The notes under the pieces are model-generated. The model saw only the letters and a list, made by a program, of their open reading frames with translations. It ran no database searches and was not told where the DNA came from. The position numbers and the translations under genes are program-made. From Escherichia coli (GTDB lineage Bacteria > Pseudomonadota > Gammaproteobacteria > Enterobacterales > Enterobacteriaceae), in assembly GCF_003334305.1 (NCBI RefSeq), contig NZ_QOWS01000040.1: a stretch of 17,427 bases of DNA; one strand, given 5' to 3'. Within the stretch, counting starts at the first letter, position 1. Every line of letters starts with the position of its first letter. Positions 11,825 through 17,342 of this stretch are shown here, piece after piece.

Positions 11825-13294
11825 ATGCATATCGATTCGACTGAAAAAAATAATAAACAAAAGTTGGGCTTGCTTGCGCTAACATCCATTGTCGTGAGCT
11901 CGATGATCGGCAGCGGCGTTGACGGACTCCCCCAGAATATGGCGGAGAATTCTGCCGTGGGCCCGGTGGCGATAGCATGGATAGTCTGTGGTATCGGCAT
12001 GTTTTTCATCTCCAGAACTTTTATCGTGCTGTCAAACATTAGACCTGATCTCCAGTCAGGAGTTTATATGTATGCCCGGGAAGGGTTCGGCCGATTTACG
12101 GCATTTAACGTCGCCTGGGGCTACTGGCTGATGACTATATTCAGCAACGTCGCCTTTGCCATTATGGTGATGGATACGCTGAATTATTTCTTACCAGGTG
12201 ATTTCAAGGGAGGGAACAATATTCCTTCCGTTATCGGTGCCTCTTTGCTGATATGGGGATTCAACTTTTTAGTCCTCTCCGGTACCCGCATTGCCGGGTC
12301 GATTAACATCGTCGGCACGCTGGCCAAACTGATCCCGCTGGTGGCCTTTATTATTATTCTCATGCTGTTTATGAAGTACACCACGTTCGCAGATAACGTC
12401 TGGGGGCACAGCGCGAGTAAGGCCAGTCAGGACCTAGGCTCTATTTTCTCACAGGTAACTTCACCGCTTAGCGTGGCACTCTGGAGCTTCATCGGCGTTG
12501 AGGGGGCTGTCGCTCTTTCCGGTCGGGCCAAAAATAAACGCGACGTGGGTAAAGCCACATTAATTGGCTTCGTTGTATCACTGATTATCTGTCTGCTGGT
12601 CTCCATCCTACCGTTTGGCGTGCTGACTCAACATGAGCTCAGCGCAATTCCAACCCCATCCACCGCCGGTATTCTGAAGATTGTTGTCGGTGAATGGGGG
12701 AAGATTATGATTATCTTGGGGGTGCTGATTTCGGTGCTTACCAGCTGGCTGGCGTGGACCATCATCTGCGCCGAACTGCCTATGGTGGCCGCGCAGAACG
12801 GCACATTCCCGAAACCGTTCAGCAAAAAAAATGTGAAGGGTTCGGCCTCGGTTTCGCTTTATATAAGCAGTGCGTTTATGCAAATCGTCGTACTTCTGGT
12901 CTACTTTTCTAACGATGCCTGGCTTGCAATGCTGGCTATCTCTACCCTGACCGTTTTACCTGCGTATTTAATGACCACGGCATACCTGTTTAAACTATGT
13001 ATTAGCGGCGAGTATGCCAGCTATACCACGAATCACAGCCGCAGCGCCGCGCTGGTCAGCAGTATTATCGGCTTTGTATTCTGCCTGTTTATGTTCTACG
13101 CCAGTGAAATCAAATATCTGGCGATGGTTCCGGTGCTGCTTACGCTGGGCGTGCCCCTGTTTATCTGGGCAAGAAAAAAAGACGATCGCGCAGATAAAAT
13201 ATTTACGCTACGCGAACTGGCATTTTTTATTTTACTGCTGGTCCTCGACATCATTGTTTTTATTCTACTGCATTATAAAACGATACATTTTTAG
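11825..13294 (+). CDS. APC-superfamily basic amino acid/amine antiporter, ArcD/YdgI-like (paralog 1)
   Basis: The 489-aa protein is hydrophobic throughout. The N-terminal KLGLLALTSIVVSSMIGSGV.GLPQN motif, ..REGFG.F..FN.AWGYWL.. and ..GVEGA..LSGRAKN..DVGKAT.. parallel my recollection of E. coli YdgI/ArcD rather than AdiC/CadB/PotE. A weak SD (AAGAG) lies 7 nt upstream. Confidence 0.85.
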   Translation: MHIDSTEKNNKQKLGLLALTSIVVSSMIGSGVDGLPQNMAENSAVGPVAIAWIVCGIGMFFISRTFIVLSNIRPDLQSGVYMYAREGFGRFTAFNVAWGYWLMTIFSNVAFAIMVMDTLNYFLPGDFKGGNNIPSVIGASLLIWGFNFLVLSGTRIAGSINIVGTLAKLIPLVAFIIILMLFMKYTTFADNVWGHSASKASQDLGSIFSQVTSPLSVALWSFIGVEGAVALSGRAKNKRDVGKATLIGFVVSLIICLLVSILPFGVLTQHELSAIPTPSTAGILKIVVGEWGKIMIILGVLISVLTSWLAWTIICAELPMVAAQNGTFPKPFSKKNVKGSASVSLYISSAFMQIVVLLVYFSNDAWLAMLAISTLTVLPAYLMTTAYLFKLCISGEYASYTTNHSRSAALVSSIIGFVFCLFMFYASEIKYLAMVPVLLTLGVPLFIWARKKDDRADKIFTLRELAFFILLLVLDIIVFILLHYKTIHF

Positions 13295-13398: not shown

Positions 13399-15768
13399 AT
13401 GAAATTTAACCACAATCTTTTATTTATTTCCTCACAATATCTTGATGGCGACAACCCTTCGCAGCAGGTACTGGAAGAGCTTCAAACCGAACTCGCGGAA
13501 CGCGGTTTTAAAATTCATATCACGCACCAGATCTCTGATGGATTAAAAATCATCGAAAAAAGCCCCCAATACAGCGGGATTGGTTTTTACTGGGAGCCAG
13601 ACAATCCGACCTTTGCAGAAGAGCTACAGCACTTTATCAGCATATTCCGCAAAAGAAATGCCACGACGCCGCTGATAATTTTCTCAGAACAGAATATTAC
13701 CGATCGTATCCCACTCGACGTCTTAAAAGAGGTCAGCGAATATGTTTATCTGTTCTCTGAATCCGCAGCCTTCACTGCCAATCGACTGTACTCCTTAGTC
13801 CACCGCTATGCGGATAAGCTTCTTCCTCCCTACTTTAAAACCCTTAAGGACTTTACCGAGGACGGTGACTATTACTGGGACTGCCCGGGGCATATGGGGG
13901 GAATGGCCTATCTGAAACATCCTGTTGGCATTGAGTTCATTAACTTCTTTGGCGAAAACATGATGCGCGCTGATATTGGCGTGGCTACCGCGGAGATGGG
14001 GGATTATCTGATCCACGCCGGACCGCCTAAAAAATCGGAAGAAATTGCGGCCCGACTGTTTGGCTCTGATTGGACCTTCTACGGTGTTTCCGGCTCATCG
14101 GGGTCGAACCGTATTGTGGCCCAGGCTGCGGTTGGCGCAGATGAAATTGCCATTATTGACCGAAATTGCCACAAGTCACTTAATCATGGCCTGACCTTGT
14201 CTCAGGCAAGGCCGGTTTACCTGAAACCTACCCGCAACGCGTGGGGGCTGATTGGGCCTATCCCGACCGGACGCCTGAAGAAGGCCAGTATTGATGCGCT
14301 GGTGGCAAACAGCCGACTAGCATCTGGTGCGGTCAGCCAGTCCCCGTCCTACGCCGTGGTAACCAACTGCACCTATGATGGCTTCTGTTATAACGTGAAC
14401 GATGTAGTCAGACACCTGGGTGAAAGCGCACCGCGCATCCATTTTGATGAAGCATGGTATGCCTATGCGCGTTTCCATCCGCTATACCAGAGTCGCTATG
14501 CAATGGACGCGGAGGAAACGCCAAATCGTCCAACCCTATTCGCCGTACAGTCCACCCATAAAATGCTGCCCTCACTCTCCATGGCCTCAATGATTCATGT
14601 GAAGAAAAGCGATCGCGCGCCGCTTAATTTCGATGACTTTAACGATGCCTTTATGATGCACGGCACGACCTCACCCTACTACCCGATCATTGCATCAATT
14701 GATGTGGCAGTAAGCATGATGGAGGGTGAATCCGGTTATTCGCTTGTGCAGGAGTCAATTGAAGAAGCGATTGCCTTCCGTAAAGCCGTGGTCAGCGTCA
14801 AGCGCCAGCTCCAGGAGCAGGAAGGTGGTGACGCCTGGTTCTTCGATGTGCTTCAGCCAACCGAAGTGCAGGACAGCGATTCTGGGCAGCGATACAGTTT
14901 TGAAGAGGCACCCGTATCGCTGCTGAGCCACAGCGCCGACTGCTGGTCGCTGCGCTCCGGTGAGCGCTGGCACGGTTTTGCCGATGATGATCTGGTCGAA
15001 ACCAACAGTATGCTCGATCCAGTAAAAGTGACCCTGACTTGTCCAGGGATCGGCCCGAAGGGAGAATACCAGAAAAACGGTATTCCGGGATATTTGCTGA
15101 CCCGTTTTCTCGATGACCGTCGCATTGAAATTGCCCGTACTGGTGACTACACCGTGCTGATCCTGTTCTCCGTCGGCATCACCAAAGGCAAATGGGGAAC
15201 TCTGATTGAAAGCCTGCTGGCCTTTAAAAAGCATTACGACAATGACGATCTGGCCACAGATGCTATCCCGTCGCTGAAAGCGCATTCTCCACACTACGAC
15301 ACGCTAACCCTCAAGGAGCTATGTCAGATAATGCATGAAAAAATGGATGAGCTGGAGCTGATGTCGCATATCAACGACGCGGTAAACACCGATCCGGAAC
15401 CAGTTATGACCCCGGCAGAAGCCTATCAGAAAGTCGTACGCTACAAAACCGAGCATATCCGGCTGGATGATTTTAGCGGCAGAATTGCCGCCAGCATGCT
15501 CGTCCCATATCCCCCAGGCATTCCTGTACTGATGCCGGGCGAACGGATGCCGCAAGGTAACAAGGGCATTATTGGCTATCTGCGCGCCCTGCAGGAATTC
15601 GATAAGCAATTCCCAGGTTTTGAACATGAGATCCAGGGCGTTAACGTCGATGAAAACGGGGACTTCTGGGTCAGAGCGATTGTGGAAGAAGAACGCGATG
15701 GGCAGTCGCTACCCGGCCACATAACCTTTAAACGCCAGGTCTCTGGTATTAAAAAGGGCCGCCAGTAG
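13399..15768 (+). CDS. Fold-I PLP-dependent Orn/Lys/Arg decarboxylase with N-terminal wing domain (AdiA/CadA-like), substrate unknown
   Basis: The 789-aa ORF has a GGAG SD 7 nt upstream. It shares motifs with biodegradative decarboxylases: PGHMGG, DRNCHKS, VVTNCTYDG, HFDEAWYAYARF, the PLP-lysine motif STHK (K388, nt 14560-14562), TTSP.Y and YPPGIPVLMPGE..FPGFEHE. The first 130 aa or so resemble the CheY-like wing domain. Confidence 0.9.
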   Translation: MKFNHNLLFISSQYLDGDNPSQQVLEELQTELAERGFKIHITHQISDGLKIIEKSPQYSGIGFYWEPDNPTFAEELQHFISIFRKRNATTPLIIFSEQNITDRIPLDVLKEVSEYVYLFSESAAFTANRLYSLVHRYADKLLPPYFKTLKDFTEDGDYYWDCPGHMGGMAYLKHPVGIEFINFFGENMMRADIGVATAEMGDYLIHAGPPKKSEEIAARLFGSDWTFYGVSGSSGSNRIVAQAAVGADEIAIIDRNCHKSLNHGLTLSQARPVYLKPTRNAWGLIGPIPTGRLKKASIDALVANSRLASGAVSQSPSYAVVTNCTYDGFCYNVNDVVRHLGESAPRIHFDEAWYAYARFHPLYQSRYAMDAEETPNRPTLFAVQSTHKMLPSLSMASMIHVKKSDRAPLNFDDFNDAFMMHGTTSPYYPIIASIDVAVSMMEGESGYSLVQESIEEAIAFRKAVVSVKRQLQEQEGGDAWFFDVLQPTEVQDSDSGQRYSFEEAPVSLLSHSADCWSLRSGERWHGFADDDLVETNSMLDPVKVTLTCPGIGPKGEYQKNGIPGYLLTRFLDDRRIEIARTGDYTVLILFSVGITKGKWGTLIESLLAFKKHYDNDDLATDAIPSLKAHSPHYDTLTLKELCQIMHEKMDELELMSHINDAVNTDPEPVMTPAEAYQKVVRYKTEHIRLDDFSGRIAASMLVPYPPGIPVLMPGERMPQGNKGIIGYLRALQEFDKQFPGFEHEIQGVNVDENGDFWVRAIVEEERDGQSLPGHITFKRQVSGIKKGRQ

Positions 15769-15786
15769 GCGGGGGAAAGAACAATA

Positions 15787-15812
15787 CCGTCGGATCGCCT
15801 GCAATCCGACGG
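15787..15812 (+). other. Intercistronic stem-loop between the decarboxylase and transporter 2
   Basis: CCGTCGGAT-cgcctgca-ATCCGACGG forms a perfect 9-bp stem starting 19 nt after the decarboxylase stop. No T-run follows it, so it is more likely an mRNA processing/stability or partial-attenuation element than a full terminator. Confidence 0.4.
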
Positions 15813-15842
15813 CAATATTATAGAATAGCTGAGGGAAACGTT

Positions 15843-17342
15843 ATGGCAGAGCAATCTTCAGATGTAAAAAATAGTGACAATAGCGCCGGAGGACATAAGC
15901 TGGGGCTTATATCCCTCATCGCTATTGTCGTTAGCTCCATGCTGGGAGGCGGCGTTTTCAGTCTGCCGCAAAACACGGCGGCCTCTTCTGCACTAGGGCC
16001 AGTAATCATTGCATGGATTATTGCCGGGATCGGTATTTATTTTATCGCAAACTCCTTTCGCGTACTATCAGATCTGCGCCCGGACCTTCAGGCTGGAGTG
16101 TATATGTATGCCCAGGAAGGTTTTGGTTCCTTTATTGGCTTTAACGTCGCCTGGGGCTACTGGCTGATGACCGCATTTGGCAACGTTGCCTTTGCGGTAA
16201 TTTTAATGGATGCTTTTAATCAGTTTATGCCGGGGGTTTTTACGGATGGTAATAATCTGAACTCCATTATCTGCGGCTCAGTGCTGATCTGGGGCTATAA
16301 TTTTCTTGTTCTGTCCGGGACGAAAGTGGCCGGATTTGTTAACACCTTGGGAACCATCGCCAAGCTCGTCCCTCTGATCCTATTCGTATTACTGCTGGGT
16401 GTGCTGATCGATTATTCGGACCTGTTTAAAAATTTTTGGGGAGAATCACCCGCGATCCTCAGTGGCAACGGAAATGACGCCGCACCAGTATCGCTGCTGT
16501 CTCAGATTCTGGCACCGATGACCGTAACGCTCTGGGCCTTTATTGGCGTCGAGGGAGCGGTTGTTCTATCCGGACGTGCCAAAAATAAACAGGACGTAGG
16601 GAAAGCCACACTGATCGGCTTTCTGCTGGCGCTAATTATTTATATGTTAATGTCCATTCTGCCGTTCGGTGTAATGCCTCAGGCAGAACTAGCGCAGGTC
16701 AGTAACCCCTCTACCGCAGGCGTGCTCGCCCACGTTGTCGGTCAGTGGGGCGACTGGCTGATGAGCGCGGGGCTGATTATTTCTGTTCTGGCCGGCTGGC
16801 TTGCCTGGACCATGCTATGCGCTGAAATACCGATGGTAGCAGGACAGAAAGGCGCTTTCCCGCGCGCGTTTGCCCGAACGAACAGTAAACAGGCGGCCAA
16901 TGTGTCACTGTGGGTTAGTAGCTTTGTGATGCAGGCGGCCATGTTACTTGTTTATTTTTCAAATAATGCTTGGACCACCATGTATAATATCAGTGCGCTG
17001 ATGGTTGTTCCGGCCTATATTACCACCACGCTGTATCTGACCAGTATTTGCAGAAACGGAAAATATGATCAGTATGCAAAAAAAGGCCGCAGGCTGGCTT
17101 TGTCCAGCGGTGTTTTAGGCTCGCTATTCTGTCTGTTTATTCTTTACGCCAGCCAGATTGAGTATGTTGCATTAATTCCTATCCTGTTGACCTGTGGTCT
17201 GCCGGTCTTTATCTGGTCAAGAAAAGAAAAAAATGATGGTCAGCCGATATTTACCAAAAAAGAGCTGATTTATCTGATTATGCTGTTGCTGTGCGATATT
17301 ATCGTCGTTGCCCTGTTTATTGGTGGATATTTAAAGGTATAA
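15843..17342 (+). CDS. APC-superfamily basic amino acid/amine antiporter, ArcD/YdgI-like (paralog 2)
   Basis: The 499-aa ORF has a GAGGG SD 7 nt upstream. It aligns end-to-end with paralog 1, with well over half of positions identical by eye. It carries the canonical TM1 motif SSMLGGGVFSLPQN. Confidence 0.88.
   Translation: MAEQSSDVKNSDNSAGGHKLGLISLIAIVVSSMLGGGVFSLPQNTAASSALGPVIIAWIIAGIGIYFIANSFRVLSDLRPDLQAGVYMYAQEGFGSFIGFNVAWGYWLMTAFGNVAFAVILMDAFNQFMPGVFTDGNNLNSIICGSVLIWGYNFLVLSGTKVAGFVNTLGTIAKLVPLILFVLLLGVLIDYSDLFKNFWGESPAILSGNGNDAAPVSLLSQILAPMTVTLWAFIGVEGAVVLSGRAKNKQDVGKATLIGFLLALIIYMLMSILPFGVMPQAELAQVSNPSTAGVLAHVVGQWGDWLMSAGLIISVLAGWLAWTMLCAEIPMVAGQKGAFPRAFARTNSKQAANVSLWVSSFVMQAAMLLVYFSNNAWTTMYNISALMVVPAYITTTLYLTSICRNGKYDQYAKKGRRLALSSGVLGSLFCLFILYASQIEYVALIPILLTCGLPVFIWSRKEKNDGQPIFTKKELIYLIMLLLCDIIVVALFIGGYLKV

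Follow-up and report, generated by a model that had tools for sequence, protein, structure and literature searches.

The window analysed here, a stretch of 17,427 nt from Escherichia coli (contig NZ_QOWS01000040.1 of assembly GCF_003334305.1), carries at its right-hand side three plus-strand genes: a decarboxylase gene (Dec, 13399-15768, all positions being those of the window) and an antiporter gene on either side of it, anti1 (11825-13294) and anti2 (15843-17342). We suggest that this trio is a mobile, proton-consuming amino-acid/amine exchange cassette built around an uncharacterised sister subfamily of AdiA, a reading to which we assign a probability of about 0.72. The three genes would form one transcription unit, to which a porin is added in Providencia and Bordetella. 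An amino acid would be imported in exchange for its amine, its decarboxylation would use up a cytoplasmic proton, and the result would be acid protection, proton-motive force, or both. This mechanism is proposed by analogy with AdiA/AdiC, CadA/CadB, SpeF/PotE, hdcT1-hdc-hdcT2 and AaxABC. The substrate is probably a basic amino acid, and homology cannot tell which.

Dec was called as an open reading frame (ORF) of 789 aa with an ATG start, and three Pfam domains follow each other along it: the wing domain (OKR_DC_1_N, nt 13465-13809, 58.9 bits against a gathering threshold of 29.3), the major domain that binds pyridoxal phosphate (PLP; OKR_DC_1, nt 13825-15189, 483.6 bits against 27) and the C-terminal domain (OKR_DC_1_C, nt 15265-15654, 157.4 bits against 24.2). 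The E-value of the major domain (6e-145) excludes a chance match. Wing-domain decarboxylases share a PLP lysine in an S-x-H-K motif, a stacking histidine, an aspartate directed to the pyridine nitrogen and a T-T-S loop contributed by the partner subunit, and Dec retains the full set of PLP and catalytic residues. The Schiff-base lysine is Lys388 in S-T-H-K (nt 14560-14562), aligned with LdcI K367 and AdiA K386, and H258, D350, W353, S385, H387 and T423-T424-S425 align with LdcI H245, D330, W333, S364, H366 and T398-T399-S400. A Foldseek search with an AlphaFold2 monomer model (mean predicted local distance difference test, pLDDT, 84.4) returned the AdiA structures 7p9b and 2vyc at the top (7p9b with E=1.7e-73 and a template-modelling score of 0.68-0.73). 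Dec thus appears to be a catalytically intact wing-domain, PLP-dependent amino-acid decarboxylase of the AdiA/LdcI type, presumably decameric.

Further we aligned Dec and members of its clade with the products of adiA, cadA, ldcC, speF and speC of E. coli K-12. An earlier note on this DNA, made from the letters alone, had seen a mixture of AdiA-like and CadA-like strings in Dec and proposed a lineage distinct from both. All the strings it quoted were found where it had placed them. Among the K-12 references VVTNCTYDG, HFDEAWY and FPGFEHE occur in AdiA alone, PGHMGG and PTRNA in CadA and LdcC only, and WFFDV in CadA only. One segment had in part been misattributed to CadA, as its LCQ.MH part resembles SpeF and SpeC (RQLCQEMH) and CadA itself reads ELAQNIH.

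The proposed separate lineage is well borne out. Dec falls below the cut-offs of all NCBIfam equivalogs, the best of them being AdiA (NF011603, 739.9 bits against 1167), followed by LdcC (NF011928, 621 against 968), CadA/LdcI (NF011929, 560 against 1056), SpeC (NF010092, 429 against 794) and SpeF (TIGR04301, 425 against 1310). Its identity to AdiA is 39%, comparable to the 35.5% between AdiA and CadA, and is 37% to CadA, 38% to LdcC, 30% to SpeF and 32% to SpeC. In a bootstrapped neighbour-joining tree Dec, about 120 database homologues and a set of approximately 50%-identical relatives from Acidobacteriaceae, Methanosarcina and Methanothrix form one group (hereafter the superclade) with 100% support, apart from AdiA, and AdiA is its sister at 79% bootstrap. 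When solved structures were searched by sequence, AdiA scored 626-639 bits and LdcA of Pseudomonas aeruginosa 583 bits. Carriel et al. described four proteobacterial groups in the family in 2018, of which the Adc group was patchy, with horizontal transfer and "possibly hidden paralogy" (PMC6257575). The Dec clade fits this description of the Adc group, but was never singled out. The Dec lineage is a widespread, unstudied subfamily, sister to AdiA.

The substrate pocket sets the clade apart as well. In a 2025 cryo-electron microscopy structure of Hafnia alvei LdcI with a lysine analogue, the pocket for the distal ammonium consists of T149, S181, S183 and E526 (PMC12091041). The first three align with C162 (nt 13882-13884), G194 (13978-13980) and A196 (13984-13986) in the active-site loops of Dec, and Ala579 (nt 15133-15135) takes the position of LdcI Glu526, SpeF Glu532 and AdiA Thr571. 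The four positions read T, S, S, E in LdcI and LdcC, A, G, E, T in AdiA, C, C, A, E in SpeF and SpeC, and C, G, A, A in the Dec clade. We scored these signatures over 206 aligned clade sequences, the 132 with the C162/G194 signature being taken as the clade proper, and over 25 family-wide representatives of 50% clusters. Four types emerged: TSS..E in the lysine decarboxylases (Ldc), AGE..T in AdiA, CCA..E in the ornithine decarboxylases (ODC), and CGA..A or AGS..A in the superclade. Alanine at 579 was confined to the superclade and to one of the 25 representatives, P0256, which is 42% identical to Dec and of unresolved position in the family.

The Dec clade is hence without the glutamate common to Ldcs and ODCs, and also without the loop carboxylate of AdiA. 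When A159, G191, E193, D202 and T571 of AdiA are set against C162, G194, A196, I205 and A579 of Dec, only the glycine is common to both. The ODC motif GDxL(I/T)H is present in Dec as GDYLIH and two of the four ODC pocket positions match, with the glutamate missing. Further, the leucine at position 203 of the neighbouring motif is replaced by Tyr in the Dec clade and by Trp in distant relatives. Taken together, the distal pocket predicted for Dec (C162, G194, A196 and A579, along with I205) seems to fit none of the lysine, arginine and ornithine types. As for the ppGpp site of LdcI, which we take to comprise R97, R206, K417, R558, L564, R565, N568 and R585 (letters that match CadA), Dec has K, R, E, K, D, L, D and T at the corresponding residues 110, 219, 442, 611, 617, 618, 621 and 637. 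Regulation of the LdcI type by ppGpp is unlikely, as this presumed pocket is not conserved.

The earlier note had also pointed to Ile205, seen as a change in a conserved LLDH motif. Residues 201-208 of Dec (nt 13999-14022, plus strand) do read GDYLIHAG where AdiA, CadA and LdcC have GSLLDH(T/S)G, and the ATC codon for Ile205 lies at nt 14011-14013. Across the Arg/Lys-type half of the family the aspartate is a conserved residue, position 205 being D or E in nearly all representatives of 50% clusters, but Ile or Thr is normal in ODCs: SpeF, SpeC and the Lactobacillus 30a enzyme have GDLLIHEG and the L. rhamnosus enzyme GDMLTHGG. The position is also variable within the clade, with roughly 90 I, 19 V, 18 E, 5 T and 1 M across the signature classes. 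Well-characterised family members thus carry Ile or Thr at 205, which by the note's own reasoning makes the change in part unremarkable. As SpeF, SpeC and the Lactobacillus ODCs carry Ile or Thr there, the Asp-to-Ile change in Dec gives the ODC form of the motif and is not a break in a universally conserved one. In the H. alvei structure the motif aspartate is not among the residues listed as holding the distal ammonium (PMC12091041). A hydrophobic residue at 205 is unusual for the Arg/Lys half, yet not the best marker of the clade.

A better hallmark is found at the C-terminus. Dec extends 29 residues past the end of AdiA (residues 761-789, nt 15679-15765), most of this being the charged tail EEERDGQSLPGHITFKRQVSGIKKGRQ (residues 763-789, nt 15685-15765), which closes on the motif IKKGRQ (nt 15748-15765). 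As the earlier note had counted, 45 residues follow FPGFEHE in Dec; after PGFxx(E/D) there are 18 in AdiA, 23 in CadA, 21 in LdcC and 22 in SpeC. The note had put SpeF in the same short range, wrongly, for SpeF has 35. Of the 132 members of the clade proper 126 reach a length of 780 aa or more, and almost every one of these has a terminal [IV]KKGR[QHM]; in the 126 the residues K785 (122), K786 (117), G787 (121) and R788 (125) are retained, while F777, P772 and H774 are frequent. The KKGR motif is present even in the archaeal relatives from Methanosarcina and Methanothrix (RSFKKGRS, RSMKKGRS) and in one acidobacterial metagenome-assembled genome (MAG; RKRGRM). The Acidobacteriaceae group is without it, as are a few members that have no tail (Photobacterium, Shewanella, an Enterobacter plasmid). 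In the superclade alignment Asp at 205 and the C-terminal KKGR are mutually exclusive, the motif being present in 0 of 57 sequences with Asp and in 136 of 141 without it. A linkage of Asp205 loss to tail gain was nevertheless rejected, since the Asp group is a single monophyletic acidobacterial clade and the pattern amounts to about one evolutionary event.

In the AlphaFold2 model residues 761-780 have pLDDT values of 80-88 with a short strand at 777-779, while the last eight residues are disordered (pLDDT 35). In LdcI the peripheral C-terminal beta-sheet binds RavA (PMC4832331), and the C-terminal domain helps to form a substrate entry channel lined with acidic residues (PMC4832331; PMC8983666). 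The extension of Dec departs from this same beta-sheet. The tail is a conserved hallmark of the clade and, we infer, a functional element of the enzyme itself. As the motif is kept in archaeal relatives that have no adjacent antiporter, its role would be intrinsic (gating, autoinhibition or assembly) and not the docking of a transporter. Most likely it would be regulatory, docking either into the acidic channel for the substrate or onto a surface between subunits. Basic tails with a hydrophobic-K-G-R/E pattern were also seen on distant branches, in the representatives P0270 and P0259 (…VLKGRTK, …TRKRART) and in SpeF (…LLKGEKL), and this recurrence hints at an older C-terminal element in the family.

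Both antiporters belong to the APA family of basic amino acid/polyamine antiporters (TIGR00905, cut-off 409 bits), anti1 with 489 aa and 488 bits and anti2 with 499 aa and 493 bits. Neither reaches any equivalog (ArcD, HdcP, AdiC, CadB, PotE). Against the AdiC model (cut-off 574) they score only 146 and 155 bits, and for anti1 the values are 442 of the 591 needed for ArcD and 438 of the 725 needed for HdcP type 2. The two are 55% identical to each other and form two orthologous series across loci, which makes the duplication an old one. Residues Y93, N101, W202, E208 and W293 of AdiC are kept in both. We take N101 and W293 to be guanidinium-binding residues in AdiC, but the two are present in PotE too and are not arginine-specific. 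The HdcP type 2 scores (415-438 bits) equal those for ArcD and the source names are generic; with binding residues also found in PotE, a substrate clue from the antiporters was rejected.

The order anti1-dec-anti2 is found in Klebsiella, Citrobacter, Providencia, Serratia, four Bordetella species, Alcaligenes, Candidimonas and Commensalibacter, and the order dec-anti2(-anti2) in five further lineages, among them Alphaproteobacteria MAGs, Lentisphaeria, Crenobacter and Ignatzschineria. In total Dec adjoins at least one such antiporter in 17 loci of other genera and in two plasmid loci, an 18th locus (L017) being a contig of 3.1 kb. Anti1 is syntenic in 12 loci from other genera, and anti2 orthologues track the decarboxylase clade. 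Directly 3' of anti2 a FomA-type porin gene (NF049910, 341-405 bits against 125) is found in Providencia, on both chromosome and plasmid, and in three Bordetella species (loci of the two genera: L008:12085-13137, L011:12100-13122 and L086:11047-12093; also L014 and L016), while B. holmesii retains only a remnant (L020:12127-12318). On the P. rettgeri plasmid this gene is labelled "hypothetical protein"; in E. coli an insertion sequence (IS) of the IS1 family fills that side. Past the antiporters and the porin no conserved neighbour was found in the fetched loci, including no hisRS or other gene that would reveal the substrate. No antiporter accompanies the approximately 50%-identical relatives from Acidobacteriaceae, Methanosarcina and Methanothrix, whose neighbouring genes are unrelated ones for M20 and C69 peptidases, a group II decarboxylase, a class V aminotransferase, glycosyltransferases and a transporter of the major facilitator superfamily. 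In Methanosarcina (L023, L024) the relative lies between the group II PLP decarboxylase and the class V aminotransferase, with an M20 peptidase adjacent, and Methanothrix/Methanosaeta MAGs (L082, L084, L085) carry tandem wing-domain decarboxylase paralogues that are 38-39% and 47-49% identical to Dec.

Among 5426 complete E. coli genomes, 506-509 (about 9%) have the cassette, with at least 99% identity in 493 records and almost always on the chromosome. All three ORFs are intact in E. coli. In strain UMB200201_11 it adjoins fec, and in APEC O1 (L088, NC_008563.1:4750622-4770991) it lies in a tRNA-Phe island without fec; the same IS1-family elements stand on each side in both. The APEC O1 island also holds a Qat anti-phage system (qatC, qatD), a SLATT-domain gene and an integrase. 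A protein-level search found copies on two plasmids, one of 171 kb in Providencia rettgeri and the other a conjugative IncFIB plasmid of Salmonella; a DNA-level search of plasmids for the cassette gave no match. The gene or the cassette is common to Proteus, Providencia, Hafnia, Serratia, Bordetella, Alcaligenes and insect-gut bacteria. The cassette is thus horizontally mobile.

Several points weigh against an exchange cassette built on a new subfamily. The tree is a neighbour-joining one with only five reference sequences, and LdcA stands outside it, being excluded as the closest relative only by its lower score. The pocket argument uses four positions, transferred by alignment from one LdcI-inhibitor structure, and the active-site loops of Dec have pLDDT values below 50 in the monomer model. 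Two conserved acidic residues in the same loop, E199 and D202, could supply the charge that the pocket seems to lack. In E. coli the native upstream region is severed by an IS1-family remnant, and expression there is uncertain. The source names of the clade proteins are automatic. Our literature search found no paper on WP_000671170, on an "Orn Lys Arg decarboxylase" with an antiporter in E. coli, or on a pheU island that carries a decarboxylase gene together with an antiporter gene.

The alternatives differ mainly in the substrate they assume. Dec might simply be a second biodegradative arginine decarboxylase, its Arg:agmatine exchange redundant with AdiA/AdiC and its I205 and tail neutral peculiarities. 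NCBIfam, the solved-structure search and Foldseek all give AdiA as the best match, and AdiA is the sister at 79% bootstrap. Many sources name the protein "arginine decarboxylase", and the antiporters keep N101 and W293, with their presumed guanidinium role in AdiC. In Chlamydia, AaxABC joins a porin, an ArcD-like antiporter and an arginine decarboxylase (PMC2720952). Still, the AdiA equivalog is missed by a wide span (740 bits against 1167), and E193, D202 and T571 of AdiA have become A196, I205 and A579, whereas the true AdiA-type protein P0262 (64% identical to AdiA) retains AGE..D..T. The antiporters, too, score 146-155 bits against 574 for AdiC, N101 and W293 are shared with PotE, and the tail is conserved too strongly for neutrality. 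Hence this redundant system seems doubtful to us, and arginine as the substrate, suggested by the closest relative and by AaxABC, is held only tentatively. An ODC that arose inside the Arg/Lys branch and works with ArcD-type Orn:putrescine exchangers would explain C162 and A196, the GDxL(I/T)H motif shared with SpeF, SpeC, 1ord and 9lkg, and the ODC-like LCQ.MH, and the antiporters score on the arginine-ornithine antiporter model about as well as on any other. This explanation must account for alanine at 579 across the superclade, where ODC and Ldc have glutamate (SpeF E532, LdcI E526), for an identity to ODCs of just 30-32%, and for Glu being tolerated at 205. Proteus vulgaris, Providencia and Bordetella, all carriers of the cassette, are ornithine-decarboxylase negative in standard phenotype tables, a lead that also speaks against an ODC. 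We regard such an enzyme as quite improbable, and likewise ornithine as the substrate, to which only the ODC-like loop might point.

A specificity beyond Arg, Lys and Orn would fit a pocket that matches no known type, has no carboxylates at the mapped positions and has Tyr or Trp for Leu203. Histidine might then be the substrate, Dec being a non-homologous replacement of Hdc in a cassette like hdcT1-hdc-hdcT2, or citrulline or some other compound. The layout of the Morganella hdc cluster is identical and its flanking antiporters are of the same transporter family. Hidden specificities have a precedent in the same Pfam family, where Rv2531c is a glutamate decarboxylase and most clusters of the IPR000310 similarity network are unannotated (PMC13506015). 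This reading, though, argues from missing residues and offers no positive feature for histidine or any other substrate; E199 and D202 are still near the pocket, the antiporters are below the histidine-histamine cut-off, and there is no conserved hisRS. We rate it, and with it a substrate outside Arg/Lys/Orn as hinted by the pocket signature and the Hdc-like layout, as a slightly fainter possibility than arginine, what remains falling to lysine or others. That in E. coli the cassette is a remnant, decaying or silent, and a mere passenger between IS elements is suggested by the IS on both sides, the truncated upstream region, the absent porin and the pseudogenes around. It is very improbable given three intact ORFs with at least 99% identity in 493 records, intact catalytic residues, and the presence of a promoter-like site and, ahead of the ATG, a GGAG ribosome-binding site. 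On balance we prefer the mobile exchange cassette with a sister subfamily of AdiA at its centre. The earlier note was correct on the separate lineage, but it gave too much weight to the Asp-to-Ile change and too little to the pocket positions, the terminal KKGRQ and the cassette.

The remaining features of the window concern the surroundings of the cassette. A complete fecIRABCDE ferric-citrate uptake operon occupies 235-7780, all its genes exceeding the NCBIfam cut-offs. The program-called ORF at 5546-7012 (488 aa, TTG start) extends fecD too far: the FecD model covers residues 171-488 of it, and the RefSeq fecD starts at about 6056, overlapping the end of fecC. The operon has a guanine-plus-cytosine (GC) content of 58% against 48-51% in the decarboxylase cassette, and about 4 kb of IS debris lies between the two. 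Because of this GC difference and the intervening debris, the fec operon and the cassette are separate acquisitions. The debris is degraded mobile DNA (7781-11631), described here from the RefSeq annotation of identical DNA in locus L001, whose coordinates minus 6301 give those of the window. It comprises a small hypothetical ORF on the minus strand (8338-8595), a frameshifted IS3-family transposase (about 8678-9844), a fragment of an alcohol dehydrogenase gene (about 9917-10261) and, on the minus strand, a frameshifted IS1-family transposase remnant (10879-11572; annotated also in the identical DNA of APEC O1) that marks the left boundary of the cassette. On the right side a second IS1-family element begins about 60 nt past the window end, as annotated in identical DNA of the same two loci. 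The two flanking elements have no significant DNA similarity to each other; an IS1 composite transposon was therefore rejected, and we term the cassette only IS-bounded.

Between the IS1-family remnant and anti1, in a stretch of 27% GC, there is a sigma-70-like promoter match on the plus strand (TATACA-16-TATAAT, 11681-11708, 10 of 12 matches). It should be noted that promoter-like sites in this AT-rich region are not more numerous than in shuffled sequences, so the match may be the cassette promoter on weak evidence. A leader peptide or riboswitch 5' of the cassette was also considered and dismissed: there was no Rfam hit at the gathering threshold, the AT-rich upstream regions of six enterobacterial loci were not alignable, and in E. 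coli the IS1-family remnant interrupts the region. No plus-strand terminator was found between the three cassette genes. The 74-nt gap between Dec and anti2 holds a hairpin with a 13-bp stem (15785-15814, strand not set). As no T-run follows it on the coding (plus) strand, it is no classical terminator, and may serve in RNA stability or processing.

For amino-acid-dependent acid resistance E. coli serves as the reference organism, and four of its systems are regarded as canonical (Gad, Adi, Cad and SpeF/PotE). The cassette would be a further, strain-variable acid-resistance system, present in about 1 in 11 complete E. coli genomes including the extraintestinal pathogenic (ExPEC) strain APEC O1. 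The database label "arginine decarboxylase" is doubtful, as Dec fails the curated threshold and is without the AdiA pocket residues, and may spread error. The identity of the substrate would reveal the biogenic amine that these bacteria of the gut, the urinary tract and spoiled food are able to produce, and the conserved KKGRQ terminus may bear on the regulation of this enzyme class. Further, we speculate that the clade might be a fourth or fifth specificity class of the wing-domain family, e.g. for histidine, in which KKGRQ would act as a pseudo-substrate plug of the acidic channel at neutral pH, an independently evolved autoinhibition like that of GadB. We consider this unlikely, but if it were true, about 9% of E. 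coli, ExPEC APEC O1 among them, would carry an unrecognised amine-producing acid-resistance system.

Of the known systems, AdiA/AdiC of E. coli, Salmonella and Providencia (PDB 2vyc, 5xx1, 7p9b) is like Dec and its partners in the three domains, the predicted fold, the PLP residues and the pairing with an APC-superfamily exchanger. Dec differs from AdiA by being only 39% identical and below the equivalog, by having A, I and A in place of E193, D202 and T571, and by the 29-residue extension ending in KKGRQ; its locus differs in having two antiporters of the ArcD/HdcP branch rather than one AdiC, and no AdiY-type regulator. SpeF, SpeC and the Lactobacillus ODCs (1ord, 9lkg) have the GDxL(I/T)H motif and LCQ.MH in common with Dec and match it in two of the four pocket residues (Cys and Ala). 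The tail of SpeF is likewise a longer one, of 35 residues with LLKGEKL at its end. Yet identity is just 30-32%, E532 is Ala in Dec, and these enzymes fall in the other half of the family tree. In GadB, an acid-resistance PLP decarboxylase, a C-terminal plug could gate the active site in a pH-dependent manner. GadB resembles Dec in having a C-terminal tail but is of another fold group, and an insertion of KKGRQ into the active site would be speculative. LdcA of Pseudomonas aeruginosa (Carriel et al. 2018) is a precedent for a separate, phylogeny-defined wing-domain subfamily in the Lys/Arg half, though it scores lower than AdiA against Dec and is described as linked to polyamine metabolism and not to an antiporter cassette. 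Chlamydia AaxABC has a pyruvoyl enzyme (AaxB), another porin family and a single antiporter, but its combination of outer-membrane porin, decarboxylase and ArcD-like exchanger is that of the Providencia and Bordetella cassettes (PMC2720952). In Morganella hdcT1-hdc-hdcT2-hisRS the decarboxylase is an unrelated group II PLP enzyme and hisRS follows, neither being found in our cassette, whereas the arrangement of antiporter, decarboxylase and antiporter, with two paralogous exchangers of the same family, is the same (PMC12072131).

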